32,000 bases of DNA, from the NCBI GenBank assembly GCA_015257795.3, contig CP072208.2, positions 150,001 to 182,000 on the forward strand. The letters are read 5' to 3'. A model generated the notes under the pieces. That model saw only the letters and a list, made by a program, of their open reading frames with translations. It was not told the DNA's origin and ran no database searches. The position numbers and the translations under genes are program-made. This DNA comes from Candidatus Nanogingivalaceae bacterium. Lineage in GTDB: Bacteria > Patescibacteriota > Saccharimonadia > Saccharimonadales > Saccharimonadaceae. Shown piece after piece: positions 1 through 32,000 of the stretch (the stretch's first letter is position 1; each line of letters starts with the position of its first letter).

Positions 1-312
1 CTATCTTCTCGCGTAAATAAAAATATTGAGATCTTAAGCTTATTTTGGGGAATGATTTTAGCTGAATTTGCATGGATTTTTAATTTTTTGGTAATCGGCT
101 ACAGGATTCTTCTTGCACCATATTTTAACTTTGTTATTCCACAGGCTGCGATAATTTTAACAGTTTTGAGCTTTGTTGCTTTTGATGTTTTGGATAGCGG
201 AGAAGAGAAGAAGAAAGATATAAAAGAGCTTTTACCGGAAATTATTTTTGCTACAATTTTGATTTTAACGCTGTTAATATTCTTTTCAACAATTCCAGTT
301 GCGAAAAGCTAA
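1..312 (+). CDS. C-terminal part of a polytopic membrane protein (5' end probably outside the window)
   Basis: Frame 1 is open from base 1 into the listed 52..312 ORF. It contains hydrophobic helices (FAWIFNFLVIGYRILL, AAIILTVLSFVAF, IIFATILILTLLIFF). No family recognised. Confidence 0.45.
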   Translation, partial: LSSRVNKNIEILSLFWGMILAEFAWIFNFLVIGYRILLAPYFNFVIPQAAIILTVLSFVAFDVLDSGEEKKKDIKELLPEIIFATILILTLLIFFSTIPVAKS

Positions 313-333
313 TTTAGAAAATGAGGAGGAAAA

Positions 334-1521
334 ATGGATAATAAACCAGATAACGAATTACAAACAAAAGAACTGCAAACGAAAAATAATTCAAAAAACC
401 AAATTATCATAGCGGTTGTTTTAACTACATTGGTTTTTGGTACAATTGGTATCTTTCAGTTATTTTCAATATTTGGATCGAAAATAAATCAAGGTGCGTC
501 AATTAATTTTTCAAATAGCAATGAGAATTCAAGTTTTTCAAAACAGTCTGATTCGAATTCGATCGAATCGGTTGCGAGTAGAGTTTCGCAAAGCGTAGTT
601 TCGATTGTTGGAAAAAGCCAAAGGTCTTTAAGATATTTTAGTTCATCGGTTGAAACGGCTAGTGCTGGAACGGGGATTATCGTTAGTGAAAACGGATATA
701 TTTTAACAAATAAGCATGTTGTTTCAAAAGCTTCTGAAATTTCAGTTGTTACGAGTGACGGGAACTCTTATGATAACGTAAAAGTTGTATCGACTGATCC
801 TTTGAATGATATTGCAATATTAAAAATTTCGAACGCAAAAGGTCTTAAAGCTGCTGAACTTGGTGATTCGAAAAAACTAAATATTGGCCAACAGGTAATT
901 GCGATTGGTAATGCTCTTGGTGAATACGACGGTACGGTTACGAGCGGAATTATTTCTGGTGTTGGTCGAACTGTTGTCGCTGCAGATGGTGCTGGTTCAA
1001 ATAAGGAGATGTTAACAGATATGATTCAAACAGATGCCGCAATTAATACGGGAAATTCTGGCGGACCATTAGTGAATGCACAGGGTCAAGTTATTGGAAT
1101 TAATACTGCCGTAGCTTCAAGCGGTCAGGGAATTGGTTTTGCAATTCCAATTTCTTCTGTTAAAGGGATGCTAAAATCAATTAGCAGGGGTGAAACTCCA
1201 AAACGTGCATATTTGGGCGCTAATTATGTAGCAGTGACTCCACAAATTCAAAAGGAATATAAACTTACTGTTTCGAAAGGTGCTTTGATCAAATCACGCG
1301 TTCGTAGTCGAAATGCTATAATTTCAGATAGCCCAGCGCAACAAGCAGGTCTTCAAGAGGGTGACGTCATTACTAAGATTGATGGGATAGAAGTTTCAAA
1401 AAATACCAGCTTAGGTTCTTTGATTGGCGAAAAGAATGTTGGCGATAAAGTTCAAATTACATACATTCGCAACGGTCAAGAAAAAACAACTTCAGTAATA
1501 CTTGAAGAATACCAAAAATAA
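334..1521 (+). CDS. htrA: HtrA/DegP-family (S1C) serine protease with PDZ domain, membrane anchored
   Basis: Catalytic triad contexts are TNKHV (His), NDIAILK (Asp) and GNSGGPL (Ser). A PDZ-like C-terminus (QQAGLQEGDVITKIDG) and an N-terminal TM helix are present. A GAGGAGG SD lies at 323..329. Confidence 0.9.
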   Translation: MDNKPDNELQTKELQTKNNSKNQIIIAVVLTTLVFGTIGIFQLFSIFGSKINQGASINFSNSNENSSFSKQSDSNSIESVASRVSQSVVSIVGKSQRSLRYFSSSVETASAGTGIIVSENGYILTNKHVVSKASEISVVTSDGNSYDNVKVVSTDPLNDIAILKISNAKGLKAAELGDSKKLNIGQQVIAIGNALGEYDGTVTSGIISGVGRTVVAADGAGSNKEMLTDMIQTDAAINTGNSGGPLVNAQGQVIGINTAVASSGQGIGFAIPISSVKGMLKSISRGETPKRAYLGANYVAVTPQIQKEYKLTVSKGALIKSRVRSRNAIISDSPAQQAGLQEGDVITKIDGIEVSKNTSLGSLIGEKNVGDKVQITYIRNGQEKTTSVILEEYQK

Positions 1522-1523
1522 AA

Positions 1524-1560
1524 AATAATACTAGGGTTATTACTCTAGTATTATTTTTTA
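1524..1560. terminator. Bidirectional intrinsic terminator between convergent htrA and prmC
   Basis: An 11-bp stem AATAATACTAG / CTAGTATTATT has a 10-nt loop. It is flanked by an A-run upstream and a T-run downstream, and it overlaps the prmC stop. Confidence 0.6.
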
Positions 1561-2384
1561 TCTAAAACGATTGTGTAGTTTTCAGATTTTGATTTAACTA
1601 AACCGCAACTGTTCGCATATTTTTCAATTTCTTCAAATTGGCACGGGTCGGCCTCAAGAATAATTTTTCTTAATTTTGGTAAATCTTGCGCCTGGAATAA
1701 TAGCTCAAAAATAAGTTCTAACCCGTTTTTTCGAGCATAAAGCGCAATTTGTGGCTCATGATGTAGCTCGTTATTCTTTTCAAAGTCAACCCAATCACGA
1801 TTAACGTAAGGCAAATTTGCGGTAATAATTGTGATTTTCGAAAGAATATCTGATGGGATTTTCTCTAATAAATTGCTTTCGAAAAGAGGGATTTCTTGGT
1901 TTAAAAGCTTTTTTGCGTTCAGATTTGCTACAGCGAGAGCTTGTAGAGAAATGTCACTCGCAAAAACTTCAACTTTTTCACCACATTCAGCTTTTAGGGT
2001 TACGGGAATAATTCCTGAACCTGTACCGACATCTAGAATAACATCATCTGGTTGAAGTGTTTTTTGTGTAATTTCGATTAGTGTTTCGGTCTCGGGGCGA
2101 GGAACTAGAACATTTTCATTCACAAAAAAAGTTCGGCCAAAAAAATCTTTTTTTCGAAAAATATAAGCAAGCGGAACGCGTTTAATTCGTTTATTCAAAA
2201 AGTTATTAGCGTGAAAAACCAGAGTTTTTGAAAGCTTTTTTTGTGGATTCGCGTGCAAAAAAGTCCGTTCAACACCTAAAACATGCGCCAAGATTAATTC
2301 GGTATCAAGTTGTGCGCTGGTGATTTCAGCGTCTTTAAGTTTTTTGACTGATTTTTTCAGCCAAGTTTCAACTGTTTCGTGCAT
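1551..2384 (-). CDS. prmC: Release-factor glutamine N5-methyltransferase PrmC/HemK
   Basis: It has the SAM-binding motif DVGTGSGII and the catalytic tetrapeptide NLPY (a variant of NPPY). It starts 4 nt downstream of prfA, the classic prfA-prmC arrangement. Confidence 0.85.
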   Translation of the reverse strand: MHETVETWLKKSVKKLKDAEITSAQLDTELILAHVLGVERTFLHANPQKKLSKTLVFHANNFLNKRIKRVPLAYIFRKKDFFGRTFFVNENVLVPRPETETLIEITQKTLQPDDVILDVGTGSGIIPVTLKAECGEKVEVFASDISLQALAVANLNAKKLLNQEIPLFESNLLEKIPSDILSKITIITANLPYVNRDWVDFEKNNELHHEPQIALYARKNGLELIFELLFQAQDLPKLRKIILEADPCQFEEIEKYANSCGLVKSKSENYTIVLDKK

Positions 2385-2388
2385 AGAA

Positions 2389-3468
2389 TTAATTGTTTTC
2401 CGAGGCGTTTGCAGCCAAAAATTCTAGTTCGGCAGCCTGCAAATGATCAACAATGTCAGAAATTTGGCCATTCATTGCGGCAGGAATATTGCTTCGTGAA
2501 TAACCAATTCGGTGGTCAGTGATGCGGTCTTGCGGGAAGTTGTAAGTTCGAATCTTTTCAGATCGATCGCCAGAACCGATCAAACTGCGCCGTTCAGCGG
2601 TAAGTTTAGCATTCTCTTCATCAATTTTAGCTTGAAGAAGTCGGGCGCGCAAAATACCGAGAGCTTTTTCTTTATTCTTGATTTGTGATTTTTCATCTTG
2701 ATTTGTAACCACCATTCCAGTTGGTAAGTGTGTGATTCGCACCGCAGAATCGGTTGTGTTCACACTTTGGCCGCCATGACCACCAGAACGGTAAACATCA
2801 ATACGTAAATCGTTCGGATTAATTTCAATATCAGCTTCTTCGGCTTCAGGCAGAACAGCTACAGTTACGGTTGAAGTGTGAATTCGTCCCTGAGATTCTG
2901 TTGCTGGGATTCGTTGAACGCGATGAACGCCACTTTCGAATTTTAATTTAGAATAAGGGGCATCGCCTTTAACGCCGAAAACAACTTCTTTATATCCACC
3001 AGCATCGTTAGCAGATTCACTCAAAAGCTCAGTTTTCAAGCCGTTTTGTTCGCAATAACGCAAATACATGCGATAGAGTTCGCTTGCAAAAAGGGAAGCT
3101 TCATCACCACCCGCTCCAGCACGAATTTCAACGATCACGTTTTTATCATCGTTCGGGTCTTTTGGTAGAAGCATTTCGAAAAGCTCTTGCTCAAGTGCGG
3201 CAAGTTTTTCTTCGTTTTCGGTAATTTCCATTTTGGCGAGTTCAGCAAGTTCACCTGTTTCGAGGTTAACAAGCTCACGTGCTTCCTCAAGGTTTTTTTC
3301 AAGATTTTCGCGCATTTCACCTTTTTCAATAATTTTTTCAAGTTCAGTGAAACGTTTATTTTTAGCTGAAAAATCTGGCGAAGAATAAGCATTCGGCTCG
3401 CTTAAAAAAGCCTGAATTTCTTCTCGTTCAGTTTTAAGTTTATCAAGATTTAAATCAATTTTTGGCAT
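2389..3468 (-). CDS. prfA: Peptide chain release factor 1
   Basis: It carries the RF1-specific PAT tripeptide ([10 protein letters not shown]) and the GGQ motif ([12 protein letters not shown]). Length is the full 359 aa. Confidence 0.97.
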
Positions 3469-3543: not shown

Positions 3544-4206
3544 ATGAAAATAACCTCTTGGCGTGAATTTATTGAGAACGAAGCTGAAAAGCCATATTTT
3601 AAAAAGCTGTGGCAAAAAGTTGAACACGAGCGTGTTTCGAAAGAGATTTTTCCGGTAAGAGAAGAGATTTTTTCTTGTTTCGAAAAATGTCCGCTTGAAA
3701 AAACTAAGGTTGTGATTATTGGTCAAGATCCTTATCATGGTGTTGGGCAGGCGCACGGAATGAGTTTTTCGGTTAAAAAAGGTGTTAGAATTCCGCCAAG
3801 TTTGCAAAATATCTACAAAGAGCTTCAAAGCGATTTAGGTATTGAGCCAGCCGATAATGGTTTTTTGGAATCTTGGGCGGAGCAGGGTGTTTTGTTGTTA
3901 AACACTTCTTTTAGTGTTGAAAAAGGTAAACCTGCGAGCCATGCGAATTTTGGTTGGATGGAGTTTTCGGAACACGTTTTAGATTTTTTGAATGATTGTG
4001 AACACCCACTAGTGTTTATTTTATGGGGAGCGCATGCGCAAAAAGTTGGCGCTCGAATAACAAATCCAAAACAACTTAAAATCGAAAGCGCGCATCCTTC
4101 ACCATTTTCGGCGCACCGTGGATTTTTTGGCTCAAAACCGTTTTCGAAAGCGAACAAATTTTTAGAACAAAATGGCGAAACACCGATTGACTGGCGAGTG
4201 CGCTAA
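3544..4206 (+). CDS. ung: Uracil-DNA glycosylase (family 1)
   Basis: It has the GQDPYH water-activating motif and the HPSPFSA (HPSPLS-type) leucine-loop motif. At 220 aa it is typical UNG size. Confidence 0.95.
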   Translation: MKITSWREFIENEAEKPYFKKLWQKVEHERVSKEIFPVREEIFSCFEKCPLEKTKVVIIGQDPYHGVGQAHGMSFSVKKGVRIPPSLQNIYKELQSDLGIEPADNGFLESWAEQGVLLLNTSFSVEKGKPASHANFGWMEFSEHVLDFLNDCEHPLVFILWGAHAQKVGARITNPKQLKIESAHPSPFSAHRGFFGSKPFSKANKFLEQNGETPIDWRVR

Positions 4207-4235: not shown

Positions 4236-4481
4236 ATGAATGATATTAGCAAAAAAATAAAAGAGACTTATAGAATTGTTAATTTTCTTTTATCAAAAAA
4301 TCTTGATGAAAAATTTTCAGATATTTTTGATTTAGCTGCAGAGCTTGAGCTTCCTGTCGGGGTTGGTCGGTTTGGAGATAATGAAAGCTGGCTAAAAAGT
4401 TACAATGAGTTAAATAAAATGATGATTGAAAATAGTTTGATTAAAGATTTCGAAAAATATCTGAAAGAAACTTCTAAATAA
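4236..4481 (+). CDS. Small hypothetical protein (81 aa)
   Basis: An AAAGGGA SD lies upstream of the ATG. The gene is followed directly by a strong hairpin terminator. No family recognised. Confidence 0.5.
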   Translation: MNDISKKIKETYRIVNFLLSKNLDEKFSDIFDLAAELELPVGVGRFGDNESWLKSYNELNKMMIENSLIKDFEKYLKETSK

Positions 4482-5640: not shown

Positions 5641-5660
5641 TTAATTTCTAAAATATATCA

Positions 5661-5695
5661 AAAACTACTTTCGTTTTGGAGGTAGTTTTTTTGTT
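5661..5695 (+). terminator. Intrinsic terminator
   Basis: The stem AAAACTAC / GTAGTTTT is followed by TTTGTTGTTT. Confidence 0.6.
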
Positions 5696-5704
5696 GTTTA
5701 ATGC

Positions 5705-5733: not shown

Positions 5734-5739
5734 GTGCTT

Positions 5740-7119
5740 ATGAATAAAGAATCCCTAAATAAAAATTTGAATCAAAATCAAAATGTAAAAACCGGCTGGG
5801 AAGATGTTGCTGATTATTTGCCAAAAAATTTAGAAAATTCTCAAGATAACGAAAAAAGGGAAAGATCTTTCGAAAAAATTGGCGAATACACCGTTAAAAA
5901 TGTCGAAAAAAACCCAGATGGCAGTTATAACTTTTTAGGAATAAACCCAGAAGAGGAAAAATCTAATGCACTTAAGAAAATAGCCGCACAACAACTTTTC
6001 GAGAATTATCTTTGGGCTTATCACGAAGGCAGAAGCTCTAGTAAGCTTGAAAAAAGAAGGGAATTTCTTAAAAATAATATCGATCAAGTTTTAAAAGGTG
6101 ATATTTTAGATAAGATAGATTTTTCTAAATCTGGAAACGAGGTTTTGGTTCAAGAATATAACATTGACGGCTTGAATTTTAAGTTTTTTAATGCTATGTA
6201 TGAGGGCATGGGTGCAATTGTTAAAGATGAAGATGGTGTCATGAAAACCCGAGCTTTTAGGGAATCTGGAAGTGATCACCAATTTAAAAGTGCTCCGGGT
6301 ATGGAAGAGTTTAGGTGGATAAAAGGTAATGAGTGGGATCCAAATAAGCACTATGTTCAATCTGGTAAGCTTGACCCAAGAGTTTATGAGATTCTTAGCG
6401 ATCTATCAGGAAAGAAGACTCCACGCGGTAGTCTTCAAATAGCCGCTTCGTCGTTAGTAACATTTGTTAGAAATTTAAAAGAACAGCCATCTGAAGACTC
6501 GGAAAAATTTGAATTTTCAGAAAAACAGCATGAGTTTAAAGATGAAGAATGGAATAGAATTCGGCAACATCTGACAAAAGATTTTAAAGATTTCATGGAA
6601 ATAAAACAATACGGCCGAACTCGTGATTCATCTAAAATGCTTTCAGAAGAAGAATATGCTAAAAAATTTGATTACTATTTTGTTAAATCTGAGAAAAAAT
6701 TTTCAGCTTTAGAGAGATCGGGAATGGTCCCAGATTTCAATCGAAAACCGGATGCTAGATATTTTAAAGATAATGGAAATATCCGAATCGAGGAATTCAT
6801 TGCAAGCAGTGAAAAGGGTGATAATATTTGTTGGTCAATGGCAACCGATCGCCAAAACCGTGTTTATATTGATGATATCTTTACGCCAGACGTTCCGGTG
6901 GATAGTTATGGAACGCCGAGCGAAAAAACTAATATGGGTATGTTAATATACAAACCAGAAGATTACGCATCGCAGAACCGTGGTCTACCTGATAAATATG
7001 TTAAGGAACGCAAAGCCGATGGAAATGCTTATGAAGATATTTCAGATATGCTCAAAGCAATGCCACCAGTTCAAAAATATATGCAAGCTCTTAGGGAAAG
7101 GCGAAAGCGTAATTCTTGA
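5740..7119 (+). CDS. Hypothetical soluble protein (~459 aa), no signal peptide or TM, charged (K/E/D-rich)
   Basis: This is a long uninterrupted ORF with a consensus promoter. No catalytic motif or family recognised. The start was moved to the ATG at 5740. Confidence 0.75.
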   Translation: MNKESLNKNLNQNQNVKTGWEDVADYLPKNLENSQDNEKRERSFEKIGEYTVKNVEKNPDGSYNFLGINPEEEKSNALKKIAAQQLFENYLWAYHEGRSSSKLEKRREFLKNNIDQVLKGDILDKIDFSKSGNEVLVQEYNIDGLNFKFFNAMYEGMGAIVKDEDGVMKTRAFRESGSDHQFKSAPGMEEFRWIKGNEWDPNKHYVQSGKLDPRVYEILSDLSGKKTPRGSLQIAASSLVTFVRNLKEQPSEDSEKFEFSEKQHEFKDEEWNRIRQHLTKDFKDFMEIKQYGRTRDSSKMLSEEEYAKKFDYYFVKSEKKFSALERSGMVPDFNRKPDARYFKDNGNIRIEEFIASSEKGDNICWSMATDRQNRVYIDDIFTPDVPVDSYGTPSEKTNMGMLIYKPEDYASQNRGLPDKYVKERKADGNAYEDISDMLKAMPPVQKYMQALRERRKRNS

Positions 7120-7144: not shown

Positions 7145-7239
7145 AAGAAGGTATATAAATTAATGAAACAATTTTTGGGAGAATTCCTTTCGAATGTAAT
7201 TTCGAAAATAACCCCAAAAATGAAGACAAAGGAGTTAAA

Positions 7240-10196: not shown

Positions 10197-10297
10197 AGAA
10201 AATTCCTCCTGGATTTTTACTGGAATTTTACTTTCGAAAAGTAGTTAAGATTCTATTCATGAAAGTAAAAAAGTTTTAAAGAACGAAATACTTTTAT

Positions 10298-20817: not shown

Positions 20818-20835
20818 TAGCTTTTCGAAAAGCTA
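20818..20835. repeat. Perfect 18-bp palindrome TAGCTTTTCGAAAAGCTA in the 5' leader of the 20441..20791 gene
   Basis: Read directly from the sequence. It is centred on TTCGAA and lies 7 nt downstream of the - strand -10, so it is a candidate operator or leader hairpin. Confidence 0.6.
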
Positions 20836-21463: not shown

Positions 21464-21528
21464 GTTATTTTTTGCTGGCGTTTTGAAAGCGTCGGCAAAA
21501 GCTAATTTAAGATTTTCGAAAGGGTAAA

Positions 21529-22707
21529 ATGGAGGTTTTTAATTTAATTTTTGGAATAATTATCGGTTTAATTTCGCTAACTTTTTTGGTGGCGCTTCAT
21601 GAGCTTGGCCATGCGCTTGCGGCTAAGAAAAACGGTGTAAAACTTAAAGAATACGCAATTGGTTTTCCGCCAAGAATTAAAAGCTTTAAAGCTAAAACAG
21701 ATAAAATTCTACCAAAAGGTACAAAAATTTCGATTGGTGCAATTCCGCTCGGTGGTTTTGTGCGACTTCAGGGTGAACACGACTCTGACTCAAAAAAGGG
21801 CGATTATGGTGCAGCAAGTTTTTGGGGTAAAACGCAGATTTTGTTTGCTGGTGTTGCTATGAACTGGCTAGTTGCATTTGTAATTTTTACAGTTTTAGCG
21901 ATTTCTGGAATGCCAAAGCTACTTCCAAATCAATTTTATCTTTCTTCTGATGCAAAAATATCTGGCGGTGGTGTGCAAGTTTCTGCAATTTCAAAAAATT
22001 CTCCAGCAGAAAAAGCCGGGTTGAATAAAAATGACACACTTTTAGAGTTTAACGGTCAAAAGGTTGAAAACTCCACTAAAATTCGCCAAGATTTAAAAAA
22101 TAACGCCGGTAAAACAGTTTCTTTAAAGATTAGTCGAAACGGTAAAGAAATTTCGAAAAGTGTAAAACTCAACGAAAAAGGCAATAATGGCTTTTTGGGT
22201 GCGGTTTTATCTGACGGAATGCAAAAGATTCACTCAACTTGGAGCGCTCCAATTGTTGGTTTAGGTACAACGGTTCAATTTACGGGTGAAACATTCAAAG
22301 GTGTTGGTGAGCTTTTTGTGAACTTTTTTGGTGGAATTTTCGAAAAGGTTATTCCAAATTCTGATTCTCAAAAGAACGCAAACACTCAGCTTTCGAAAGC
22401 AGGTGAGAGTGTTTCCGGACCAGTGATGGTTATTGGAGGAATTTTCCCAAACATTGTTTCGATGGGGATGGATATGATTTTAATGCTTACCGCTATTATT
22501 TCGATTAGCTTGGCCTGTATGAATGTTTTACCGATTCCAGCGTTAGATGGCGGTCGTTGGTTTATGACGTTTATTTTTCGAGTTTTGCTTAAAAAACCGC
22601 TACCAAAAGAAACTGAAGAAAATATTAACGGCTGGAGTTTTTTGGCTCTAATGGGGCTTTCGGTTTTAATTATCGTTCTTGACTTCACGAAAATCTTTAG
22701 AGGTTAA
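21529..22707 (+). CDS. rseP: RseP/RasP-type site-2 protease (M50 zinc metalloprotease) with PDZ domain
   Basis: It has an HELGH motif in TM1, a PDZ-like segment (SPAEKAGLNKNDTLLEFNG) and the NVLPIPALDGG motif. Confidence 0.9.
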   Translation: MEVFNLIFGIIIGLISLTFLVALHELGHALAAKKNGVKLKEYAIGFPPRIKSFKAKTDKILPKGTKISIGAIPLGGFVRLQGEHDSDSKKGDYGAASFWGKTQILFAGVAMNWLVAFVIFTVLAISGMPKLLPNQFYLSSDAKISGGGVQVSAISKNSPAEKAGLNKNDTLLEFNGQKVENSTKIRQDLKNNAGKTVSLKISRNGKEISKSVKLNEKGNNGFLGAVLSDGMQKIHSTWSAPIVGLGTTVQFTGETFKGVGELFVNFFGGIFEKVIPNSDSQKNANTQLSKAGESVSGPVMVIGGIFPNIVSMGMDMILMLTAIISISLACMNVLPIPALDGGRWFMTFIFRVLLKKPLPKETEENINGWSFLALMGLSVLIIVLDFTKIFRG

Positions 22708-22708: not shown

Positions 22709-23518
22709 ATGAAAGAAAAAGTTATTCTTATTTGCAGCAAAATTCGAAAACGAAACGAGAAAATTCTTTCGAAAAAACCTTTAAAAATCATTTTTTGGGC
22801 AGTTTTGCCGATTTTAGCTTATTTTGTAGCGAGTTATACTTCAGCGGTTGTGATTCGCCTATATTTAGCGATAGCCTTTTGGGGCAATGATTCGGGCTAC
22901 CAAAACGCAACTTCTAGCGTGATTACAACATCTGTTTACTCGATTTTATTCTTTGGCTTAATGTTTGCGATAATTTATCTTGTGCCAGTTAAACTTTTCG
23001 GCCAAAAAATTTCTAGAAAAGAGATTGCTTTAAACGGGCTTATAACCTGGCAAGATTTAGCTTTAGCGTTGGTTGGATTTATTTTAGCTATGATATTGTC
23101 TGGAATTTTTCTCGACATAGCATCGCATATTCTACCAAATTTTAATAAAGCTCAATCTCAAAATTTATTGTTTCAGCGAGGAACGATGATTCACCCTTGG
23201 CAATTTTTGATGGCTTTTATTTCTATTGTTGTGATTACACCATTTGTTGAGGAAGTTATTTTTCGTGGTATGATTTACGGTCAACTTCGTAAAATAAATA
23301 TTCCGCTAGCAATTTTTTTGACCAGTCTGTTGTTTGGAATTGTTCATTTTCAGTTAAATGTAGGAATAACTGTATTCGTAATGAGCGTAATTATGTGTTT
23401 GATTCGTGAAAAAATCACCAAAACGATTTGGTCGGGAATTGTGATTCATATGATTAAAAACGGAATTGCTTTTGCGATACTTTATATCTATACAGCAACT
23501 CAATTTCTCAACCTCTAA
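22709..23518 (+). CDS. CPBP-family intramembrane glutamic endopeptidase (CAAX protease/Abi-like)
   Basis: It carries the EEVIFRG and FGIVH signature motifs in a polytopic protein. The start was taken at the ATG at 22709, behind an AGAGG SD. Confidence 0.8.
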   Translation: MKEKVILICSKIRKRNEKILSKKPLKIIFWAVLPILAYFVASYTSAVVIRLYLAIAFWGNDSGYQNATSSVITTSVYSILFFGLMFAIIYLVPVKLFGQKISRKEIALNGLITWQDLALALVGFILAMILSGIFLDIASHILPNFNKAQSQNLLFQRGTMIHPWQFLMAFISIVVITPFVEEVIFRGMIYGQLRKINIPLAIFLTSLLFGIVHFQLNVGITVFVMSVIMCLIREKITKTIWSGIVIHMIKNGIAFAILYIYTATQFLNL

Positions 23519-24096: not shown

Positions 24097-25347
24097 ATGC
24101 GATTATCAAAACTATATACCAAAACTAGTAAAACCGTTCCATCTGGCGAAGAAGCTAAAAACGCACAACTTTTGATTAAAGCTGGATTTGTGCATAAAGA
24201 AATGGCGGGTGCTTATGATTATTTGCCGCTCGGTTTCAAAGTGTTAGAAAATATTAAAAAAATTGTACGTGAAGAGCTTGAAAAAATCGACGCTAATGAA
24301 ATTTTAATGACAACCCTTCAACGCCGTGAAGTTTGGGAGCGCACAACTCGCTGGAACGATGATGTTGTGGATGTTTGGTTTAAGACTGCGCTTAAAGATA
24401 AAACAGAAGTTGGTTTAGGTTGGAGTCATGAAGAGCCAATCGTTGAAATGCTTAAAAGTCATATTCAATCATATAAAGATTTGCCAGTTTCGGTTTTTCA
24501 ATTCCAAAATAAAATGCGAAACGAACTCCGTGCAAAAAGCGGAATTATGCGTGGTCGTGAATTTTTGATGAAAGATTTGTATTCAGTTCACGCCACAAAA
24601 GAGGATTTAGAAAACTATTATTCTAAAGTTTCGAAAGCGTATGAGCGAATTTTCGAACGTCTCGGTTTGGGTGAAGATACTTTCATAACTTTCGCTAGTG
24701 GTGGTGCGTTCACAAAATTTAGTCATGAATTCCAAACAATTTGTGATGCTGGTGAAGATTACGTTTATTTGAAGCGCGATGGTGAAAAAACTCTTGCTTT
24801 CAATGAAGAAATTTTAGACCAAGCGATTGAAGAAGGTGAAATTGATTCGAAAGATGGATTAGAGAAGGTTAAAACCGCTGAAGTTGGCAATATCTTTAAT
24901 TTCGGTACGCAAAAAACTGATGAAATGGGACTTTATTTTACTGATAAAAACGGTGAGCGAAAATCTGCTTGGATGGGTTCATACGGAATCGGAATTACTC
25001 GTGTAATGGGTGTGATTGCTGAAAAATTCAGTGATGAAAAAGGTTTGATTTGGCCAGAAAACGTTGCTCCAGCTAAAATTTACCTTGTGCAAATTGGTGA
25101 GAAATCACAAGAATTAGCAGAAGAAATTTATAATGAATTTTCGAAAAAGGGAATCGAAGTTTTGTTTGATGATCGCAATCTTCGCCCAGGTCAAAAATTT
25201 GCCGACGCCGAATTGATGGGAATTCCTTATCGACTTACAGTTTCTGATCGGCTGCTTGAAAGTGGTGAATTTGAAGTTGTAGAACGCTCAACTGGCGAAG
25301 TTCAAATGCTTTCAAAAGAAGAGCTTTTCGAAAAATTCTCAAAATAA
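24097..25347 (+). CDS. proS: Prolyl-tRNA synthetase, bacterial-like N-terminus but without the INS editing domain (416 aa)
   Basis: It has MRLSKLY..AKNAQLLIKAGFV..GAYDYLPLGFKVL, motif 2 RNELRAKSGIMRGREFLMKD, motif 3 GSYGIGITRVMG, and a C-terminal anticodon-binding domain. Only about 134 aa separate motifs 2 and 3. Confidence 0.92.
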   Translation: MRLSKLYTKTSKTVPSGEEAKNAQLLIKAGFVHKEMAGAYDYLPLGFKVLENIKKIVREELEKIDANEILMTTLQRREVWERTTRWNDDVVDVWFKTALKDKTEVGLGWSHEEPIVEMLKSHIQSYKDLPVSVFQFQNKMRNELRAKSGIMRGREFLMKDLYSVHATKEDLENYYSKVSKAYERIFERLGLGEDTFITFASGGAFTKFSHEFQTICDAGEDYVYLKRDGEKTLAFNEEILDQAIEEGEIDSKDGLEKVKTAEVGNIFNFGTQKTDEMGLYFTDKNGERKSAWMGSYGIGITRVMGVIAEKFSDEKGLIWPENVAPAKIYLVQIGEKSQELAEEIYNEFSKKGIEVLFDDRNLRPGQKFADAELMGIPYRLTVSDRLLESGEFEVVERSTGEVQMLSKEELFEKFSK

Positions 25348-25393: not shown

Positions 25394-26383
25394 ATGAAAA
25401 TCATTGCTTATAGTGTACGAAAAGATGAGCTCCAGTATTTTGAAAAATTTGCGGAGCAATTTGGTATTGAATATGCCACAACTTCAAAAGATTTAAATGC
25501 TGAAACAGTAAAACTGGCCGAAGGTTTCGATGCGGTTTCTTCATATACTTCAAGTGAAGAACTGAACGATGTTTGGGAACCGCTTTCGAAAATGGGAATT
25601 TCTTATTTTACGGTTCGAACAGCTGGTTATGATGGTATAGATATCGAAAAGGCTAAAAGTTTTGGTATTAAAATTTCGAATGTTCCGCAATATTCGCCAA
25701 GTGCGATTGCTGAATTCGCGGTTGCGCTTGCACTTGCGACAATTCGAAATATTCCGCTTTGTCTTTCACGTGCAAAAAACCAGAATTTTTCGGTTGATAA
25801 TTTGATGGGTCGTGAGCTTAACACAATGACGATTGGAATTATCGGCACAGGCCACATCGGCTTAACAACAGCCAAGGTTTTTAAAGCTTTTGGTGCTAAA
25901 ATTATTGCATATGATACTTTCGAAAATCCGCAAGCGCAAAATATTTTAGAATACAAATCTCTTGATGAAGTTTTTGCGGAAAGTGATTTAATTTCGCTTC
26001 ACATTCCATTAACACCGCAAAACCACCATATCATTAACGCTGAGAGTATTGCTAAAATGAAAGACGGTGTGGTTATTGTGAACACTGCGCGTGGCGGTCA
26101 CATTAACACTGCGGATTTGCGCGATGCACTAGTTAGCGGAAAAGTTGCTGCAGCCGGCCTTGATGTTTTCGAAAATGAAAAACACCTTATTCGAAAAGAC
26201 TTAAGTGGAAGGATCATCAAAGATTCAGTTTATCGCGATTTGTCGAATTTTCCGAATGTTATCATCACGCCACACGTTGCGTTTAATACAGATGTTGCCG
26301 TTCAAAATATGGTCAAAATGTCGACAGAAAATCTAATTAGCTTTAAAAATGCAGGAACAACCGATAATGAAATCACAAAATAA
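25394..26383 (+). CDS. ldhA: D-lactate dehydrogenase (D-isomer-specific 2-hydroxyacid dehydrogenase)
   Basis: It has GIIGTGHIGL NAD-binding, NTARGG and TPHVAF motifs. Overall collinearity with fermentative LdhA is recalled from memory. Starting at the ATG at 25394 gives 329 aa. Confidence 0.85.
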   Translation: MKIIAYSVRKDELQYFEKFAEQFGIEYATTSKDLNAETVKLAEGFDAVSSYTSSEELNDVWEPLSKMGISYFTVRTAGYDGIDIEKAKSFGIKISNVPQYSPSAIAEFAVALALATIRNIPLCLSRAKNQNFSVDNLMGRELNTMTIGIIGTGHIGLTTAKVFKAFGAKIIAYDTFENPQAQNILEYKSLDEVFAESDLISLHIPLTPQNHHIINAESIAKMKDGVVIVNTARGGHINTADLRDALVSGKVAAAGLDVFENEKHLIRKDLSGRIIKDSVYRDLSNFPNVIITPHVAFNTDVAVQNMVKMSTENLISFKNAGTTDNEITK

Positions 26384-28262
26384 TCGTTTACAAAAAATTA
26401 CCAAAATTACGTCACTATTTTTAGTGGCGGTTTTGGCATTTAGTTTTGTCTCGGCGAGTTTTTCTCACCCAGCTTTTGCGCGTCGCCGCAGAAGAAATAG
26501 CGCAGCTGAGCGAAGAGAACTCGAAAGAAAGAATCAAAACATTAAATTTCCGAAGTTCGAGGGGACTTATAAATTTAGCGCCAACCAAAATGGTGATACC
26601 GACCTTGAAGTAACCGAACAGATTTCTGCAAGTTTCATTCTTGGTAATGTTAATCACGGAATTGAACGTGCTATTCCAAAATACTATAACGGTAAAACTG
26701 TTTTTGACGGTAAGGCTGATATCACAATGGACGGTATAAATGTGCCGTATAGTACAAGACCAAGCAATGGTAATGTTGTTTTTCGAATTGGCGATTCTAA
26801 CCAATATGTTTCCGGCCGACATAATTATCAAATAAAATACCATTTGAAAAATATTTTAAGAGCCGGGGAAGGCGAATTAAAGGATCGACAACTTCTAATC
26901 GTTAATGCAAATGGTTCGCAGTGGCAGCAGCAGTTTGGCGAAGTTTCTGGAAAAGTCATTCTTGATCAATCTGTTAAAAATGATTTTAAAGGGGTTGCGA
27001 AATGTTTTTCTGGTGCGTATGGGTCAGATACTCAATGTGAAAAATCGTCCCTAAACCAAGAAAATGGTGAATACACATTCTCTGAAAAGAATGTTTTAAG
27101 CAATCAAAGCGTAACATTCTTGATGGCTTTCAATAATAAATTTGCTCAGCCAACGCCTAATCCTTTAGATGTAACTACAATGATTGTAGCAATTGTTTCT
27201 ATGATCGCCGCACTAGTGATTGTGGCCTTAGCTATGATTGTTTTCTATAAGAAAAATGCAATTCGAAAGCGAAACTCACTTTCGAAAGAGGCTAAAACAG
27301 TTGTTCCGCAATATTTACCACCAAAAATCGGAGTATTAGATATCCTTGATGCGGGCAACTTAGTTAAATCTAATAAGAAAGTCACCGCTGCGATGCTATT
27401 TTTTGCAGTCAATGGTAACATTTTGATTGAGGAAGAAGAGAAGAAAAATCTTTTCGGTAAACACAAGATTTACAAGATAAAGCTATTAAATTACAGAGGT
27501 TTAAACTCAGATATGCGCGAGCTTTTGGAATGTTTCTTTATCGATGGAGAAGAAGTTAACCTTTCGAAAACTATGAGCTCTTCTATAGCATCGAGTATTT
27601 CTTCAAGAATCATAAATGACAGGTTTAAAGATACAGATTATTACGACCAAAGCGAGCCAGCTTTCAATAAAAGAATGCGCATCGTTGCTTATGTTATTGA
27701 CGCTTTGATTTTTGCATCGTTTTTCTTTAGCGATTCTACATTCTCGGCGCTTTCGACTGTTTCGAAGTGGCATCCGTATATCTTCCTTTCAACTTTGATT
27801 GCGGGCGTATTTTCGACATTAATTATAGTTGTTGTAAGTATTAAGATTCCATCTAGAAAAGGTTATGAAATGAAGAATTACCTTATGGGATTAAAGCTTT
27901 ATATTTCAGTTGCTGAAAGCGAACGGCTTAAATATCTCCAAAGCCTTGAAAAATCTGAACGCTTCAAAGATGAATTTGGTGGTTCACGAGTTAAACTTTA
28001 CGAAAAACTTTTACCTTGGGCTGCTTTGTTTGGTCTTGAAAAATCTTGGGCAAAGGTTCTTGAAGTTGAATTTGCGAACAATGACTATCAACCAAGCTGG
28101 TATTCTGGCGTGAATGCATTCAACGCAGCCGTTTTTGCAGATACGCTCAATAGCTTCAGCAGTGCCGTTAACAGCTATTCTGCGCCAAGCTCTGGTGGTG
28201 CCGGTGGCGGTGGCGGATTTTCTGGCGGCGGTGCCGGTGGCGGCGGTGGCGGTGGTTGGTAA
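26367..28262 (+). CDS. DUF2207-family membrane protein with C-terminal poly-Gly tail
   Basis: It has an N-terminal signal/anchor, an extracellular domain with NHGIERAIP, central TM helices, and the terminal SSGGAGGGGGFSGGGAGGGGGGGW typical of DUF2207. The start (26367, or 26349) overlaps the ldhA 3' end. Confidence 0.75.
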   Translation: MKSQNNRLQKITKITSLFLVAVLAFSFVSASFSHPAFARRRRRNSAAERRELERKNQNIKFPKFEGTYKFSANQNGDTDLEVTEQISASFILGNVNHGIERAIPKYYNGKTVFDGKADITMDGINVPYSTRPSNGNVVFRIGDSNQYVSGRHNYQIKYHLKNILRAGEGELKDRQLLIVNANGSQWQQQFGEVSGKVILDQSVKNDFKGVAKCFSGAYGSDTQCEKSSLNQENGEYTFSEKNVLSNQSVTFLMAFNNKFAQPTPNPLDVTTMIVAIVSMIAALVIVALAMIVFYKKNAIRKRNSLSKEAKTVVPQYLPPKIGVLDILDAGNLVKSNKKVTAAMLFFAVNGNILIEEEEKKNLFGKHKIYKIKLLNYRGLNSDMRELLECFFIDGEEVNLSKTMSSSIASSISSRIINDRFKDTDYYDQSEPAFNKRMRIVAYVIDALIFASFFFSDSTFSALSTVSKWHPYIFLSTLIAGVFSTLIIVVVSIKIPSRKGYEMKNYLMGLKLYISVAESERLKYLQSLEKSERFKDEFGGSRVKLYEKLLPWAALFGLEKSWAKVLEVEFANNDYQPSWYSGVNAFNAAVFADTLNSFSSAVNSYSAPSSGGAGGGGGFSGGGAGGGGGGGW

Positions 28263-28371: not shown

Positions 28372-31188
28372 ATGAATAATTTTTGGGTTGGGTTTAAAAA
28401 CAAAAAAGGGATCTTTTTAGCTATTTTAGCTTTGTTTACGGTGGCGACATCTGTAGTAGATAATCGCCACCAGGCTTATGCTGATGATTATCAATATAGC
28501 CAAGAAGAGTGTGCAAAGGGAGGATTTAAATACGACGGCGTAGAACTATGGTCACATGCTGGTGCTGGATGTCTTGTTTATACCGCTGAAATTAAAAATG
28601 GTAAAGTATTGCGAACTGACCAGGTTCAGACTATTGGTGGTCCTAAAGATTTAGTTAGGCTTAAGCCTACTTATGTCCTTAAAGATGGAGGTACCTGTTT
28701 TAAAGGATATAAGAAAAAAAACTATGAGGGTATAAATGTTTGTGAAATAAGTGATAAGGATAGTAAATCTAAGGATGCAGGCTATCCTCCAGGATCTAGC
28801 TCTAAAAATACTCTAGATGCCAAGAGCTGTGAGAAAGCAGGGGGGTTTTATAATGCGGTTGGTGATAAAAAAAGGTGTTTTTTAAATAATTTAAAAGGTG
28901 AACTAGAATCGTTTAATAATATCTCGTCTTTTCCTAGTAAATATCTAACAAAAGAAGATTGCGCACCTGGATTTGTAAAAAGTAAAGATAAACAATCTAA
29001 AGATTTCACGGTGCCTCTTACTACGGATGGACCGGGTACTGTAAAGGATAAGAAGCCAACCCCCGTCTATACTTGTGCTAAAAAAGGCACCAAAGCTGGT
29101 GACAGTGTAGAAGAATGTAATAAAGAAGAAAACAAAGATAGTGAAAAATGTAAAAATAATCCAGCTGGTGAAGACGATGGTGATGGCTCTGATGACAAAA
29201 ACTCTTGTGCAATTGAATGGGTTGGTTGGATTATGTGTCCGATTATCAATGGTGCAAATGGTATGGTTGTTACTACTTATAGCATCATGCAGAAGCATTT
29301 TCTAAATATTAAGGCTGATGAAATCTTCCAACAAGACAAGCCGGCGTTCAAAACTTGGTCTAGTTTCCGTGATATTGCTAACGTATTTTTTGTAATAATA
29401 TTGTCTATTATTATCTTCTCGCAAGTTTCGGGTGTGGGTATTTCAAATTATGGCATCAAGAAGATGTTGCCAAAAATTATTGTCTTTGCGATTTTAGTTA
29501 ATATTTCATGGTATGTTTCTGTTTTGATGATTGATATCTCTAATATTGTAGGACATTCATTGTTTGAATGGCTTTCGAATGATGGTCAATGGGATTACTC
29601 GAGTGACTCTCAGACAGAGAATAACCCTATTAAGCAAATCTTGGGTGGTACTGCTGTTCTTGGTGTTGGTACTGCCGCAGGTGTTACAGGTGCTTTTGCT
29701 GCAGGGTCTTCAGCGTTGCTGTTTCTTATCTCGGCTGCACTTGCGTTGATTATGATGGTATTTATCTTGCTAATTCGACAGGCTGCTGTGATTGTGCTTG
29801 TAGTTATTTCACCAGTAGCTTTTGTTGCAGGTATTCTACCAAACACAGAAGGGTTCTTCAAAAAATGGATGAAGTTCCTTAAAAATATGTTAATGATTTA
29901 CCCAATTTGTTCGCTAATTGTGGGTGGTGCAATATTTGTTTCAAACTTGCTTTATAGTAATGAAAGTAATCCGCTATTGAAGGTTGCCTATGGTTTACTG
30001 CCAATCCTTTCATTGTTTACAATTGTTGCTATAATCAAGAGTGTGCTTTCAATCATTGACGGCTTAACGGGCGGTAATCTACGTGGAACTCTTGACCGAA
30101 TGTCTGGTAGAATAAATAATGGTATTAAAGAAAGTAGCCCTATACAGCATTGGAAAGATGCAGAAAATAGGCGTACTGTAGGTGATATTAGTTTTAGAGG
30201 GCATAAACTTGGTAATGTTATTAGTGACGATAATAAATTCGGCCGCTATGTTAAGGGGATGGGTCTAACTAGAGCTAGAAGGCAATATAATTATGAACAG
30301 AAAAGAGCTGCTCAGGAGTATGATAGGGATGGTGCGGCTATAGATAAGATTCTATCTAAAGAAAATCTAACACCAGAAGATTATCGAGAATTGGCGGCTA
30401 GATCAAATAGCAGGGCTGCATTCGAGAAGAGCCAGACTGAAGGTATGACAGCTGTAATAGCTAGAGCAATATCTGGTAATGTCAATAACCTCGGAGGGCA
30501 GTTAGATAAAATTGATAATGTATCTGATCCGAATCAGAAGGCGTTATTGTATGGTTCGGCTGCTCAAGCGGCTACAAAAGCTGGCTTAAGTGCTGCTGAT
30601 CAGGAAGTAGCCATGAATAATATTGTCAATAGAGCTTTGAGTATCAAAGACGATACTCAAAGACAAGCGGCAATGACACAGATTGCTTCAAGAGCTGGTT
30701 CTGATATGAAGAGCGCTAACCCAGCTGCAGCTAAGGCTGCTATGCAAGATGTTTCAAATTCTAATAACATCAAGAGTGTTTCCGATTTCGCAAAAGAGGC
30801 TTCGACCTATGCTGGTGCTAGCGCCCAACAAATGTCTAGTTGGTCAACAATGTCAAGTAATAATACAGCAGATAATAAGGTTGTTGGTGCTATTAAGGAA
30901 GCCTTTAAAAATGGTGATCAAGCACAAATTGCTCATGCACAGAATATAGGTAAGATTGCCGATCAAGCGCTTAAAGCGCATAACGAAGGTAAGATGTTCT
31001 TAACACCTGCGCAGGAAAGAAACTTTAAGGATGTATCGAATACTGTTAAAGTAAATACTCCTGCACCTGTAAGCTCACAAAATGTGCAGACAAGTGTAAA
31101 TTATAACACTCAGAGCCAATATACATATGGTGCTCCAGCGCCAACACCAAAATCGGTTGTAGGCCAGTATAAATCAAATAAACCATAG
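28372..31188 (+). CDS. Large secreted/polytopic membrane protein (938 aa): Cys-rich N-terminal ectodomain, ~7-8 TM core (VirB6/TrbL-like topology, tentative), A/Q/S/N-rich C-terminal domain
   Basis: It has a signal peptide (..HQAYA/DD) and 12 Cys within residues ~45-295. Dense TM helices span residues ~285-565 (e.g. RQAAVIVLVVISPVAFVAGIL), followed by a ~370-aa low-complexity hydrophilic tail. The confidence refers to the CDS being real; the VirB6-like call alone is about 0.3. Confidence 0.85.
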   Translation: MNNFWVGFKNKKGIFLAILALFTVATSVVDNRHQAYADDYQYSQEECAKGGFKYDGVELWSHAGAGCLVYTAEIKNGKVLRTDQVQTIGGPKDLVRLKPTYVLKDGGTCFKGYKKKNYEGINVCEISDKDSKSKDAGYPPGSSSKNTLDAKSCEKAGGFYNAVGDKKRCFLNNLKGELESFNNISSFPSKYLTKEDCAPGFVKSKDKQSKDFTVPLTTDGPGTVKDKKPTPVYTCAKKGTKAGDSVEECNKEENKDSEKCKNNPAGEDDGDGSDDKNSCAIEWVGWIMCPIINGANGMVVTTYSIMQKHFLNIKADEIFQQDKPAFKTWSSFRDIANVFFVIILSIIIFSQVSGVGISNYGIKKMLPKIIVFAILVNISWYVSVLMIDISNIVGHSLFEWLSNDGQWDYSSDSQTENNPIKQILGGTAVLGVGTAAGVTGAFAAGSSALLFLISAALALIMMVFILLIRQAAVIVLVVISPVAFVAGILPNTEGFFKKWMKFLKNMLMIYPICSLIVGGAIFVSNLLYSNESNPLLKVAYGLLPILSLFTIVAIIKSVLSIIDGLTGGNLRGTLDRMSGRINNGIKESSPIQHWKDAENRRTVGDISFRGHKLGNVISDDNKFGRYVKGMGLTRARRQYNYEQKRAAQEYDRDGAAIDKILSKENLTPEDYRELAARSNSRAAFEKSQTEGMTAVIARAISGNVNNLGGQLDKIDNVSDPNQKALLYGSAAQAATKAGLSAADQEVAMNNIVNRALSIKDDTQRQAAMTQIASRAGSDMKSANPAAAKAAMQDVSNSNNIKSVSDFAKEASTYAGASAQQMSSWSTMSSNNTADNKVVGAIKEAFKNGDQAQIAHAQNIGKIADQALKAHNEGKMFLTPAQERNFKDVSNTVKVNTPAPVSSQNVQTSVNYNTQSQYTYGAPAPTPKSVVGQYKSNKP

Positions 31189-31204
31189 CGTTCTAAATAA
31201 ATAA

Positions 31205-31232
31205 AAACGCCCCGCTTAAGGGGTGTTTTTTC
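31205..31232 (+). terminator. Intrinsic terminator
   Basis: The stem ACGCCCC / GGGGTGT has a 6-nt loop and is followed by TTTTTC. Confidence 0.7.
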
Positions 31233-31242
31233 TATGTAAGTG

Positions 31243-31251
31243 TGCTAAAAT
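31243..31251 (+). promoter_or_regulatory. Extended -10 TGcTAAAAT upstream of murD
   Basis: TAAAAT is at 31246..31251. An AAGGAGAG SD follows and the ATG is at 31284. Confidence 0.45.
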
Positions 31252-31283
31252 AAAGATAGAATTCAACCTAAAAAAGGAGAGAT

Positions 31284-32000
31284 ATGAAAATTGCATTAAT
31301 TGGTTTTGGCCTTGAAACAAAAAGTGCTTACGAATATTTTAAAAAGTTAGATAAAAATACCGTTTTTGAGGTTTACGATGAACATGAAAACGGAAAGCTC
31401 AAATTACCAGAAGGCGTGGAATTTTTTGGTAATTTTCACGATTTTTCAAAAATTCAGGCAGATTTAATCGTACGAACTCCTGCAGTTAACCCTTCACGAT
31501 TGCCAAAAAATGTTAAAGTCACATCTGTTACGAATTTATTTTTCGAAAACTGCCCAGCACCAATTATTGGTGTGACGGGTTCAAAAGGTAAGGGTACGGT
31601 CTCGAGTTTTATTGCCGAAATTCTGCGAGCCGCAGGATTGAGAACCCACTTACTCGGTAATATTGGTATCCCTGCGCTAGATAAAATAAATGAAATCAAC
31701 GATCAGGATGTGGTTGTTTATGAATTAAGTAGTTTTCAGCTTTGGGATGCGCAAAAATCGCCGCACATTTCGATTTTAAACAATATTGAACCAGATCATC
31801 TAGACGTTCATAATGATTTCGAAGATTATGTTCAGGCCAAATTGAATATTGCAAAAAACCAAAAAGAAGGTGATTTCTTTATATTTAACCAAGAAAATTC
31901 AACGGTTTTGAATATGGTAGAAAGAATAAAATCAAACTTAAAATCCGAACTTCAACCATTTCCGAATTATGATCTGGCGCATGTTCAGGATGGTTATTTC
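31284..32000 (+). CDS. murD: UDP-N-acetylmuramoylalanine--D-glutamate ligase, 5' part (runs off the window)
   Basis: This ORF is not in the ORF track because it has no stop; I translated it by hand. It reads MKIALIGFG.., with the P-loop GVTGSKGKGT, ELSSFQLW and NIEPDHLDVH, which are Mur-ligase/MurD signatures. Confidence 0.9.
   Translation, partial: MKIALIGFGLETKSAYEYFKKLDKNTVFEVYDEHENGKLKLPEGVEFFGNFHDFSKIQADLIVRTPAVNPSRLPKNVKVTSVTNLFFENCPAPIIGVTGSKGKGTVSSFIAEILRAAGLRTHLLGNIGIPALDKINEINDQDVVVYELSSFQLWDAQKSPHISILNNIEPDHLDVHNDFEDYVQAKLNIAKNQKEGDFFIFNQENSTVLNMVERIKSNLKSELQPFPNYDLAHVQDGYF

Follow-up and report, generated by a model that had tools for sequence, protein, structure and literature searches.

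The palindromic octamer TTTCGAAA, built on the hexamer TTCGAA, is strongly over-represented in the 32,000-bp stretch of contig CP072208.2 analysed here (the window; 36.4% GC), a chromosome segment of a Candidatus Saccharibacteria species whose closest named relatives, by SecA and its neighbours, are Ca. Nanogingivalis. The excess acts at the level of DNA, its sites are conserved above controls, it is found in one family-level clade, and in a sister lineage the same hexamer has been purged. With a probability of about 0.4, TTTCGAAA would be an iterated palindrome resembling the highly iterated palindrome HIP1 of cyanobacteria, placed on a TTCGAA methyltransferase/restriction core and retained because, once methylated, it marks DNA as self, probably in transformation or recombination.

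Exact counting gave 73 copies of TTCGAA and 41 of TTTCGAAA, or 1.28 octamers per kb; an earlier note on this DNA, which had claimed the over-representation from hand counts, had about 70 and about 45. Neither number was reached in any of 100 dinucleotide-preserving shuffles, where TTCGAA occurred 23.5 ± 4.7 times (maximum 34) and TTTCGAAA 4.15 ± 2.0 times (maximum 10). TTTCGAAA is the top-ranked 8-mer of the window, and it also ranks first in the loci L087, L088, L089, L091, L296 and L299. Its excess is ~10-fold over dinucleotide shuffles and ~6-fold over synonymous shuffles, and that of TTCGAA is ~3-fold. Confinement to the window was named in the earlier note as grounds for giving the pattern up, but it extends beyond the window, with 10-11 octamers per ~9.5 kb on each flank. 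Two further controls had been proposed there, with divided results: the excess stays under a shuffle that preserves codons and dipeptides, but a maximal-order Markov model does not flag the octamer in the window. The model is silent because the excess is already nested in the sub-words TTTCG, TTCGA and TTTCGA, and this silence reflects how the test works and does not speak against a signal.

Gene calling placed 34 genes on the window, covering 92% of it, with 36 of the octamers in coding and 5 in non-coding DNA. Using a synonymous-codon shuffle within each gene, which keeps protein sequences, dipeptides and per-gene codon usage, 5.8 ± 2.1 coding octamers are expected for the 36 observed (maximum 14 in 1000 shuffles, z = 14), and 23.8 coding hexamers for the 64 observed; codon permutation gives 2.75 octamers. 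Codon choice depends on context. In the window species, Ser is written TCG in 33% of Ser-Lys pairs against 16% overall, and Phe is written TTC in 58% of Phe-Glu pairs against 28% overall. The corresponding ranges among enriched lineages are 33-70% against 16-35% for Ser and 46-70% against 25-41% for Phe, whereas non-enriched sisters have the reverse bias (4-13%). Enriched lineages use TTC-GAA in place of TTT-GAA, with 65% C compared with 10% in the sisters. Intergenic DNA of the species (4.1 kb, 28% GC) holds 8 octamers for 0.38 expected. It is thus well supported that the force acts on the DNA itself and not on codons or proteins, as the earlier note had proposed. The note also had the motif in all frames. 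Its examples in htrA (1271), secA (15255) and prmC (2152) are correct, yet the frames are used very unequally, with 21 copies as xTT-TCG-AAA, 14 as xxT-TTC-GAA-A and one as TTT-CGA-AAx, so that the Phe-Arg-Lys frame is almost empty.

Outside the 8 bp, the relative entropy of the window copies is ~0 and no flank consensus is present; a pyrimidine at -1 is weakly preferred, largely through the Leu codon CTT, and at +/-5 there is at most a weak pyrimidine/purine preference. Palindromy extends past 8 bp in 11 of the 41 copies (27%), which is the chance rate, and longer palindromes or operators were therefore rejected as the repeated unit. The outer T and A do belong to the unit, since they surround 62-64% of TTCGAA but 8-26% of TTCAAA/TTTGAA in the same two main frames. 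Copies are dispersed singly over coding and non-coding DNA, do not lie within a longer repeat and share no sequence past 8 bp, which sets them apart from dispersed repeats of the repetitive extragenic palindrome or miniature inverted-repeat transposable element type. Spacing is Poisson-like, with a coefficient of variation of 1.03 and P = 0.17 for the largest gap, so the patchiness perceived earlier is not significant. Four other lineages behave likewise, and across five lineages the octamer occurs once per 635-757 bp (1.3-1.6 per kb).

Loci of ~22 kb around secA were compared in many lineages, with strain and locus samples that are partly non-independent; the percentage after a locus name is its SecA identity to the window. 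The assemblies GCA_030530485.1 and GCA_049294455.1, both enriched, are among the sources of the loci. HtrA of the window is indexed in 200 blocks of the sequence collection used, a sign that the species is common. Eight full-length loci of the same species (L001-L005, L093, L094, L134) carry 28-32 octamers. Strong enrichment was found in L087/L098/L162 (95%; 23-32 copies), L088 (86%; 30), L089 (86%; 34) and L299 (80%; 24), and intermediate numbers in L296 (87%; 17) and L091 (81%; 14). Neutral lineages are L090/L099-101 (84%; 1-3 copies), L298 (83%; no octamer, 4 TTCGAA for 9.3 expected) and L007/L102 (80%; none). L297 (85%) is purged, having no octamer and a single TTCGAA where 11.1 are expected. 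The tally by lineage is seven high, one or two decaying, three neutral and one purged. Other Saccharibacteria (50-77%) and ~60 unrelated bacteria have 0-2 octamers, and TTCGAA is avoided outright (0-1 for 10-14 expected) in L122, L124, L125, L127, L138, L144 and L146. A tree of SecA and M16 peptidase groups the enriched lineages, along with L090/L099 and L297, in a clade of 100% support, and L297 is sister to the enriched L088 with 100% bootstrap. The comparison with related genomes that the earlier note had called for gives a differentiated answer, with enriched, intermediate, neutral and purged lineages among close relatives.

Within the species, where sites were compared by BLAST projection across nine strains, 67% of motif sites are invariant, as against 34% of central-CG octamers in matching codon positions. 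Where lineages have 84% nucleotide identity, 43-67% of motif sites persist, compared with 14-17% of matched controls (p 3e-3 to 7e-6), and overall motif sites are 2-4 times better conserved than matched CpG octamers. The TTCGAA core is equally conserved with or without the outer T/A, in pairwise counts that take both directions of each pair. Turnover is nevertheless high: 5 of 30 sites are common to three lineages at 84% identity, and 4 of 17 are shared with L088/L089. Similar densities despite this turnover argue for an equilibrium and not simple inheritance. Motif sites lie preferentially where proteins differ between lineages, with identical amino acids in distant relatives at 18-33% of motif sites against 51-61% of control 8-mers. 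Losses take two forms. In L297, all 11 TTCGAA sites common to L088 and L089 at orthologous positions are gone, mostly by a single base change, and an ancestrally enriched site has been purged there. In L296, the 30 hexamers are a 93% subset of the 66 in L089, the survival of L089 sites (45%) is below the control (57%), and 5 of the 11 sites common to L088 and L089 are missing, a pattern that reads as one-sided decay. A parsimony test of site differences was saturated at 84% identity. A 5-methylcytosine signature was also considered and rejected: the window and L087 differ in the motif 13 times, always at the central CG, but C or G is codon position 3 in both used frames and non-motif third-position C/G is equally changeable (66-78%), so that these differences are not evidence of methylation.

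The enrichment is residence-dependent. The prophage-like stretch upstream of secA in L088 is near compositional expectation, neither enriched nor avoiding, and so is the mobile part of the related element L301. The notion that phages of the enriched clade are enriched as well was dropped, as the excess in L301 comes from the first 4 kb, which are host-like, and L301 taken whole is only marginal (11 of 200 shuffles at or above the observed count). The seven mobile elements L306-L312 from IMG/VR (51-52% GC), which belong to higher-GC Saccharibacteria, together carry 9 TTCGAA where 49 are expected, with L308 at 0 for 8.7. Viral contigs scanned for paired motifs gave mostly single chance pairs and one tandem repeat. 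A TrbL/VirB6-like gene is free of TTTCGAAA in four lineages (window 28372-31188, L089 4399-7188, L091 4455-7178, L296 4536-7109), with ~3.5 octamers expected in the window, 4.2 in L089 and 1.7 in L091. Lineages with 85% identity in SecA share only ~30% in this gene, and two large unannotated proteins encoded to the left of the window (L172 2480-6196) likewise lack the motif, which suggests that these genes are frequently replaced or imported.

The favoured reading, a methyl-marked self signal, can be set out as a sequence of steps. The TTCGAA core would be the recognition site of a restriction-modification specificity of BstBI/AsuII type, and these Saccharibacteria may have gained, lost and reshuffled that specificity. 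Within the enriched clade, a resident and probably solitary methyltransferase would modify the site, which would escape restriction, so that a methylated site would mark resident, conspecific DNA. Marked alleles would then be favoured, most likely in natural transformation or recombination, as proposed for HIP1. Copies would rise, through context-dependent codon choice and some amino-acid change, to an equilibrium of ~1.3-1.6 octamers (2.3-4 hexamers) per kb where coding constraints allow. Should the supporting function be lost, sites would decay, as in L296 and L091; should restriction become effective, they would be purged, as in L297. Purging of this hexamer also marks a sister lineage, further members of the phylum and mobile elements, and a TTCGAA methyltransferase/restriction specificity is therefore the most economical common cause. 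The methyltransferase or epigenetic option, one of three between which the earlier note did not choose, thereby gains strong indirect support, although no enzyme was located in the loci examined. The self-signal role is favoured on account of the transformation work on HIP1, the mark of Campylobacter jejuni discussed below and the competence of Saccharibacteria. The uptake option in the earlier note is compatible with the methylation option because both HIP1 and the C. jejuni signal are methylation-dependent. A bolder version, possible but on the unlikely side, is that TTTCGAAA is the first self-recognition signal for uptake or recombination in the Candidate Phyla Radiation (CPR), a methylated palindrome by which an epibiont would, in natural transformation, sort conspecific DNA from that of its GC-rich Actinobacteria host and which would run through an arms-race cycle of enrichment, decay and purging with a cognate restriction enzyme.

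Several observations weigh against the self-signal reading. Pfam searches of unannotated genes of the window and flanks and catalytic-motif scans of all open reading frames (ORFs) in every Saccharibacteria locus fetched turned up no DNA methyltransferase, restriction endonuclease or Vsr-like nuclease, nor any uptake receptor; the DNA covered was ~52 kb of the species and these loci, a sampling of 20-50 kb per lineage and never a whole genome. The fold-enrichment of ~6-20x is below the 15-300x reported for HIP1, and TTTTGAAA/TTTCAAAA, the neighbours expected from deamination, show no clear depletion in the window (15 for 18 expected by synonymous shuffle). Support for monophyly of the enriched lineages is only moderate, and their inner branching is weak. 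The high positional turnover implies that selection on any single site is weak. Avoidance in sister lineages could in principle be due to a TTCGAA restriction system that circulates in the shared habitat and is unrelated.

A first alternative is a neutral repair ratchet. Here, a TTCGAA methyltransferase combined with biased mismatch repair (Vsr-like at T:G, or methyl-directed as in Elhai's model) would make and protect sites with no benefit to the cell. Needing the same methyltransferase link, it explains lineage switching and purging equally well, and the equilibrium of ~1 per kb agrees with the prediction of Elhai's model (PMC4390886). Most between-lineage site differences are CG<->TG/CA exchanges and TTT-GAA is replaced by TTC-GAA, as such repair would have it; the CG<->TG/CA exchanges are, however, typical of any third-position C/G, in motif and non-motif CpGs alike, and TTTTGAAA/TTTCAAAA show no clear depletion. 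A T:G bias also leaves the preference for the outer T/A and the gains off the CpG unexplained, mobile DNA resident in enriched hosts is not enriched, and no gene of Vsr or MutH-like type was seen in the loci examined. On balance, the ratchet appears rather improbable. Less probable still, and quite unlikely in our estimate, is a classical uptake sequence recognised by a pilus or competence receptor independently of methylation and spread by uptake bias and recombination (molecular drive), in the manner of the DNA uptake sequences (DUS) and uptake signal sequences (USS). A density (~1.3 per kb) equal to theirs, the use of all tolerated frames, the greater richness between genes and the scarcity in mobile and fast-evolving genes would all suit it, as would the placement at protein-variable positions, which USS share (PMC2817400). 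Saccharibacteria are naturally competent through ComEC (PMC10633639). An AT-rich octamer would, as we reason, tell self from GC-rich Actinobacteria host DNA. Known DUS/USS are nonetheless non-palindromic 9-12-mers with flank preferences and not 8-bp perfect palindromes without flanks; if a receptor were lost, sites should decay neutrally and not be purged as in L297; and the match to a type II restriction hexamer that other Saccharibacteria and mobile elements avoid is left unexplained.

Two further explanations fare worse. The option of a nucleoid or segregation protein in the earlier note would call for an abundant nucleoid-associated, condensin-loading or segregation factor that binds the octamer and gives order to the chromosome. 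The palindromic form would fit a dimeric DNA-binding protein, conservation of the sites exceeds that of controls, and a role in chromosome structure has been proposed for HIP1 (PMC5861425), but local spacing is random, without regularity, in the 32-52 kb of contiguous sequence available, the unit does not extend past 8 bp, and neither the purge in the sister lineage nor the avoidance by mobile elements elsewhere is accounted for. No specific support was obtained for this option, which we regard as very unlikely. An artefact of composition, codon pairs or dipeptides, without a cause at the level of DNA, can practically be dismissed. The Markov silence, a mild over-representation of Ser-Lys (1.25x) and the doubling of the expectation by amino-acid sequence relative to codon permutation speak for it; against it, the excess stays with protein and codon usage fixed, is strongest in intergenic DNA, and is absent or reversed in sisters of the same GC content with the same proteins.

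Several genes related to methylation, repair or restriction deserve mention. The S-adenosylmethionine-dependent methyltransferase of L091 (14279-15508) was set aside as a candidate, as it has homologues in non-enriched lineages, and Ung (3544-4206), considered as a T:G-specific glycosylase that might account for the maintenance of CG, was discarded because it is an ordinary family-1 enzyme that matches solved Ung structures at E 8e-71. The PrmC/HemK release-factor methyltransferase (1551-2384, minus strand) has NLPY where the catalytic NPPY is expected. A protein with a GmrSD_C domain, of a modification-dependent type IV restriction family, adjoins secA in the strongly enriched L299 (8676-9293). 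The TTCGAA-avoiding elements L308 (4632-5867, minus strand), L306, L307 and L311 encode an N6/N4 DNA methyltransferase of 412-450 aa with a DPPY motif (for the L308 type, Pfam N6_N4_Mtase, E 2e-20).

Other sequence features were recorded in the same loci. The DraI-type hexamer TTTAAA is heavily depleted in L089 (3 for 32 expected), L091 (5 for 27), L299 (3 for 16.5) and L122 (1 for 19), and is not among the most avoided palindromes of the window species; it is avoided alongside TTCGAA (0-3 per locus for 5-14 expected) in L122, L124, L125, L127, L138, L144 and L146 and in the IMG/VR elements L306-L312, which implies that TTCGAA- and TTTAAA-specific restriction is widespread in the phylum. In L122-type genomes, the dipeptides Phe-Glu and Ser-Lys are depleted too, to 0.47 and 0.66 of expectation. 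GC-rich palindromic octamers head the 8-mer lists of the unrelated high-GC genomes L057 (Rokuibacteriota), L056, L067 and L069, one example being GCTCGAGC with 16 copies in 22.6 kb (raw count).

The octamers of the window are listed in Table 1. Every non-coding site named in the earlier note is present, and 20818-20835 is, as it stated, a perfect palindrome of 18 bp, TAGCTTTTCGAAAAGCTA, which lies between the divergent genes 20441-20791 (minus strand) and frr. It is the only copy with palindromy well past chance, is polymorphic among strains, and may be a case in which the motif has become part of an operator or bidirectional terminator. Compared with L001-L005, a few small or surface-type genes in the stretches 4993-7119, 9052-9426, 14048-14975 and 20441-20791 have 65-92% amino-acid identity while most other proteins are 100% identical, and the gene at 5734-7119 is swapped for MucBP/Muc_B2 proteins in some strains, indicating a within-species mosaic from recombination or gene swapping. 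A parA-parB pair at L172/L173 6811-8468 lies ~3 kb left of the window start, and the window may therefore be origin-proximal.

Table 1. Copies of the octamer and related features along the window.
Feature	Coordinates	Strand
Whole window, chromosome segment of Candidatus Saccharibacteria species; 41 TTTCGAAA, 73 TTCGAA	1..32000	
TTTCGAAA in htrA, xTT-TCG-AAA	1271..1278	
TTTCGAAA in prmC	1836..1843	
TTTCGAAA in prmC	1877..1884	
TTTCGAAA in prmC, sole TTT-CGA-AAx copy (Phe-Arg-Lys)	2152..2159	
TTTCGAAA in prfA	3174..3181	
TTTCGAAA in ung (family-1 uracil-DNA glycosylase)	3635..3642	
TTTCGAAA in ung	3678..3685	
TTTCGAAA in ung	4142..4149	
TTTCGAAA in small ORF 4236-4481	4448..4455	
TTTCGAAA in ORF 5734-7119 (variable surface-type protein)	5868..5875	
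TTTCGAAA intergenic, upstream of rpsB; second TTCGAA at 7189	7200..7207	
TTTCGAAA intergenic after tsf; strain polymorphism GTTCGAAA	8600..8607	
TTTCGAAA in ORF 9543-10196	9765..9772	
TTTCGAAA intergenic, upstream of serS	10232..10239	
TTTCGAAA in serS	10757..10764	
TTTCGAAA in ORF 12621-13907	13108..13115	
TTTCGAAA in secA, xxT-TTC-GAA-A	15255..15262	
TTTCGAAA in secA	15278..15285	
TTTCGAAA in secA	16904..16911	
TTTCGAAA in secA	17078..17085	
TTTCGAAA in secA	17621..17628	
TTTCGAAA in M16 peptidase gene	18345..18352	
TTTCGAAA in M16 peptidase gene	18378..18385	
TTTCGAAA in xseA	19179..19186	
TTTCGAAA in xseA	19961..19968	
TTTCGAAA in xseB	20310..20317	
Intergenic TTTCGAAA (20823-20830) within TAGCTTTTCGAAAAGCTA	20818..20835	
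TTTCGAAA intergenic, upstream of rseP	21514..21521	
TTTCGAAA in rseP	22151..22158	
TTTCGAAA in rseP	22338..22345	
TTTCGAAA in rseP	22391..22398	
TTTCGAAA in Rce1-like protease gene	22767..22774	
TTTCGAAA in class-II aminoacyl-tRNA synthetase gene 24097-25347	24629..24636	
TTTCGAAA in aminoacyl-tRNA synthetase gene	25139..25146	
TTTCGAAA in aminoacyl-tRNA synthetase gene	25326..25333	
TTTCGAAA in 2-hydroxyacid dehydrogenase gene	25584..25591	
TTTCGAAA in 2-hydroxyacid dehydrogenase gene	25918..25925	
TTTCGAAA in 2-hydroxyacid dehydrogenase gene	26167..26174	
TTTCGAAA in DUF2207 gene	27280..27287	
TTTCGAAA in DUF2207 gene	27562..27569	
TrbL/VirB6-like type IV secretion gene, 0 TTTCGAAA, 1 TTCGAA in 2.8 kb	28372..31188	+
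TTTCGAAA in small ORF 31454-31699	31541..31548	

A literature search, itself incomplete, returned no prior report of the motif in Saccharibacteria, of TTCGAA methylomes or of iterated palindromes in the CPR. HIP1 has been a puzzle for 30 years and has been treated as specific to cyanobacteria; the present case would be an independent one, with a different sequence and in a tiny reduced genome. If the bolder self-recognition reading given above is true, HIP-type palindromes would form a general, convergently evolved class and not a cyanobacterial oddity. Enriched, decaying, neutral and purged close relatives provide a natural experiment for phylogenetic profiling of the responsible gene or genes. 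Saccharibacteria are engineered via natural transformation, and a requirement for the motif or its methylation would bear on the design of tools for uncultured relatives. The motif also offers a sharp k-mer barcode to bin the clade in oral and other metagenomes. That one restriction-type hexamer is driven in opposite ways in sister species matters for the reading of restriction-avoidance statistics.

Among known systems, HIP1 comes closest. Its CGATCG methyltransferase core, density of ~1 per kb, conserved sites and methylation-dependent enhancement of transformation have been described (PMC4390886, PMC5861425, bioRxiv 10.1101/2024.09.10.611283, 10.64898/2026.06.24.733823). A resident DNA methyltransferase, in most cases an orphan, targets the core hexamer of HIP-type palindromes (Elhai 2015), and their sites are conserved between genomes above control motifs (Xu et al. 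2018). HIP-type palindromes are also distributed periodically at 10-90 kb, whereas TTTCGAAA has Poisson spacing locally, within 32-52 kb. Like HIP1 (GCGATCGC) and Elhai's alternative HIPs, TTTCGAAA is an 8-bp palindrome made of an outer base pair around a 6-bp type II palindrome; it is the most abundant octamer, occurs about once per kb in genes and between genes, has sites conserved above matched controls with lineage exceptions, and would share the link to methyltransferase specificity and natural transformation. The differences are that TTTCGAAA is AT-rich with a TTCGAA core, is found in Patescibacteria, is enriched less, and belongs to one family-level clade instead of a whole phylum, with sister lineages that avoid the core. 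It is an analogue and not HIP1 proper, because the sequence differs from GCGATCGC and the organism is a Candidatus Saccharibacteria.

With the DUS of Neisseria and the USS of Pasteurellaceae, TTTCGAAA has in common a density of about one per kb (1.3-1.6 per kb in five lineages), coding-frame preferences, a location in variable protein segments, scarcity in mobile DNA (near expectation in the prophage-like part of L088 and the mobile part of L301) and a host phylum that is competent. DUS/USS are, however, asymmetric, some with flanking AT tracts; the Neisseria DUS is read by the pilin ComP, and DUS/USS are neither restriction sites nor purged in relatives. Beauchamp and colleagues reportedly described in 2017 that the C. 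jejuni sequence RAATTY, when methylated by the orphan methyltransferase CtsM, is a methylation-dependent uptake signal. Like this short palindromic self mark, which works only when methylated by a solitary enzyme, TTTCGAAA would be methylation-dependent, and a mark of the C. jejuni type is the mechanism that we consider most likely. RAATTY is abundant through an AT-rich genome with no large excess reported, whereas the excess of TTTCGAAA is its main feature. Dcm/Vsr of Escherichia coli is said, after work by Bhagwat and McClelland in 1992, to raise CCWGG and to lower its T:G neighbours. There too a methyltransferase site is over-represented, through site-specific T:G repair, but the effect is less than two-fold, and here no Vsr gene was seen in the loci examined and no clear neighbour depletion in the window. 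Restriction-site avoidance, lastly, is found in textbook form for TTCGAA in L297, in other Saccharibacteria and in some mobile elements, and the window is opposite in sign, with the palindrome over-represented from 3-fold (hexamer) to 10-fold (octamer).

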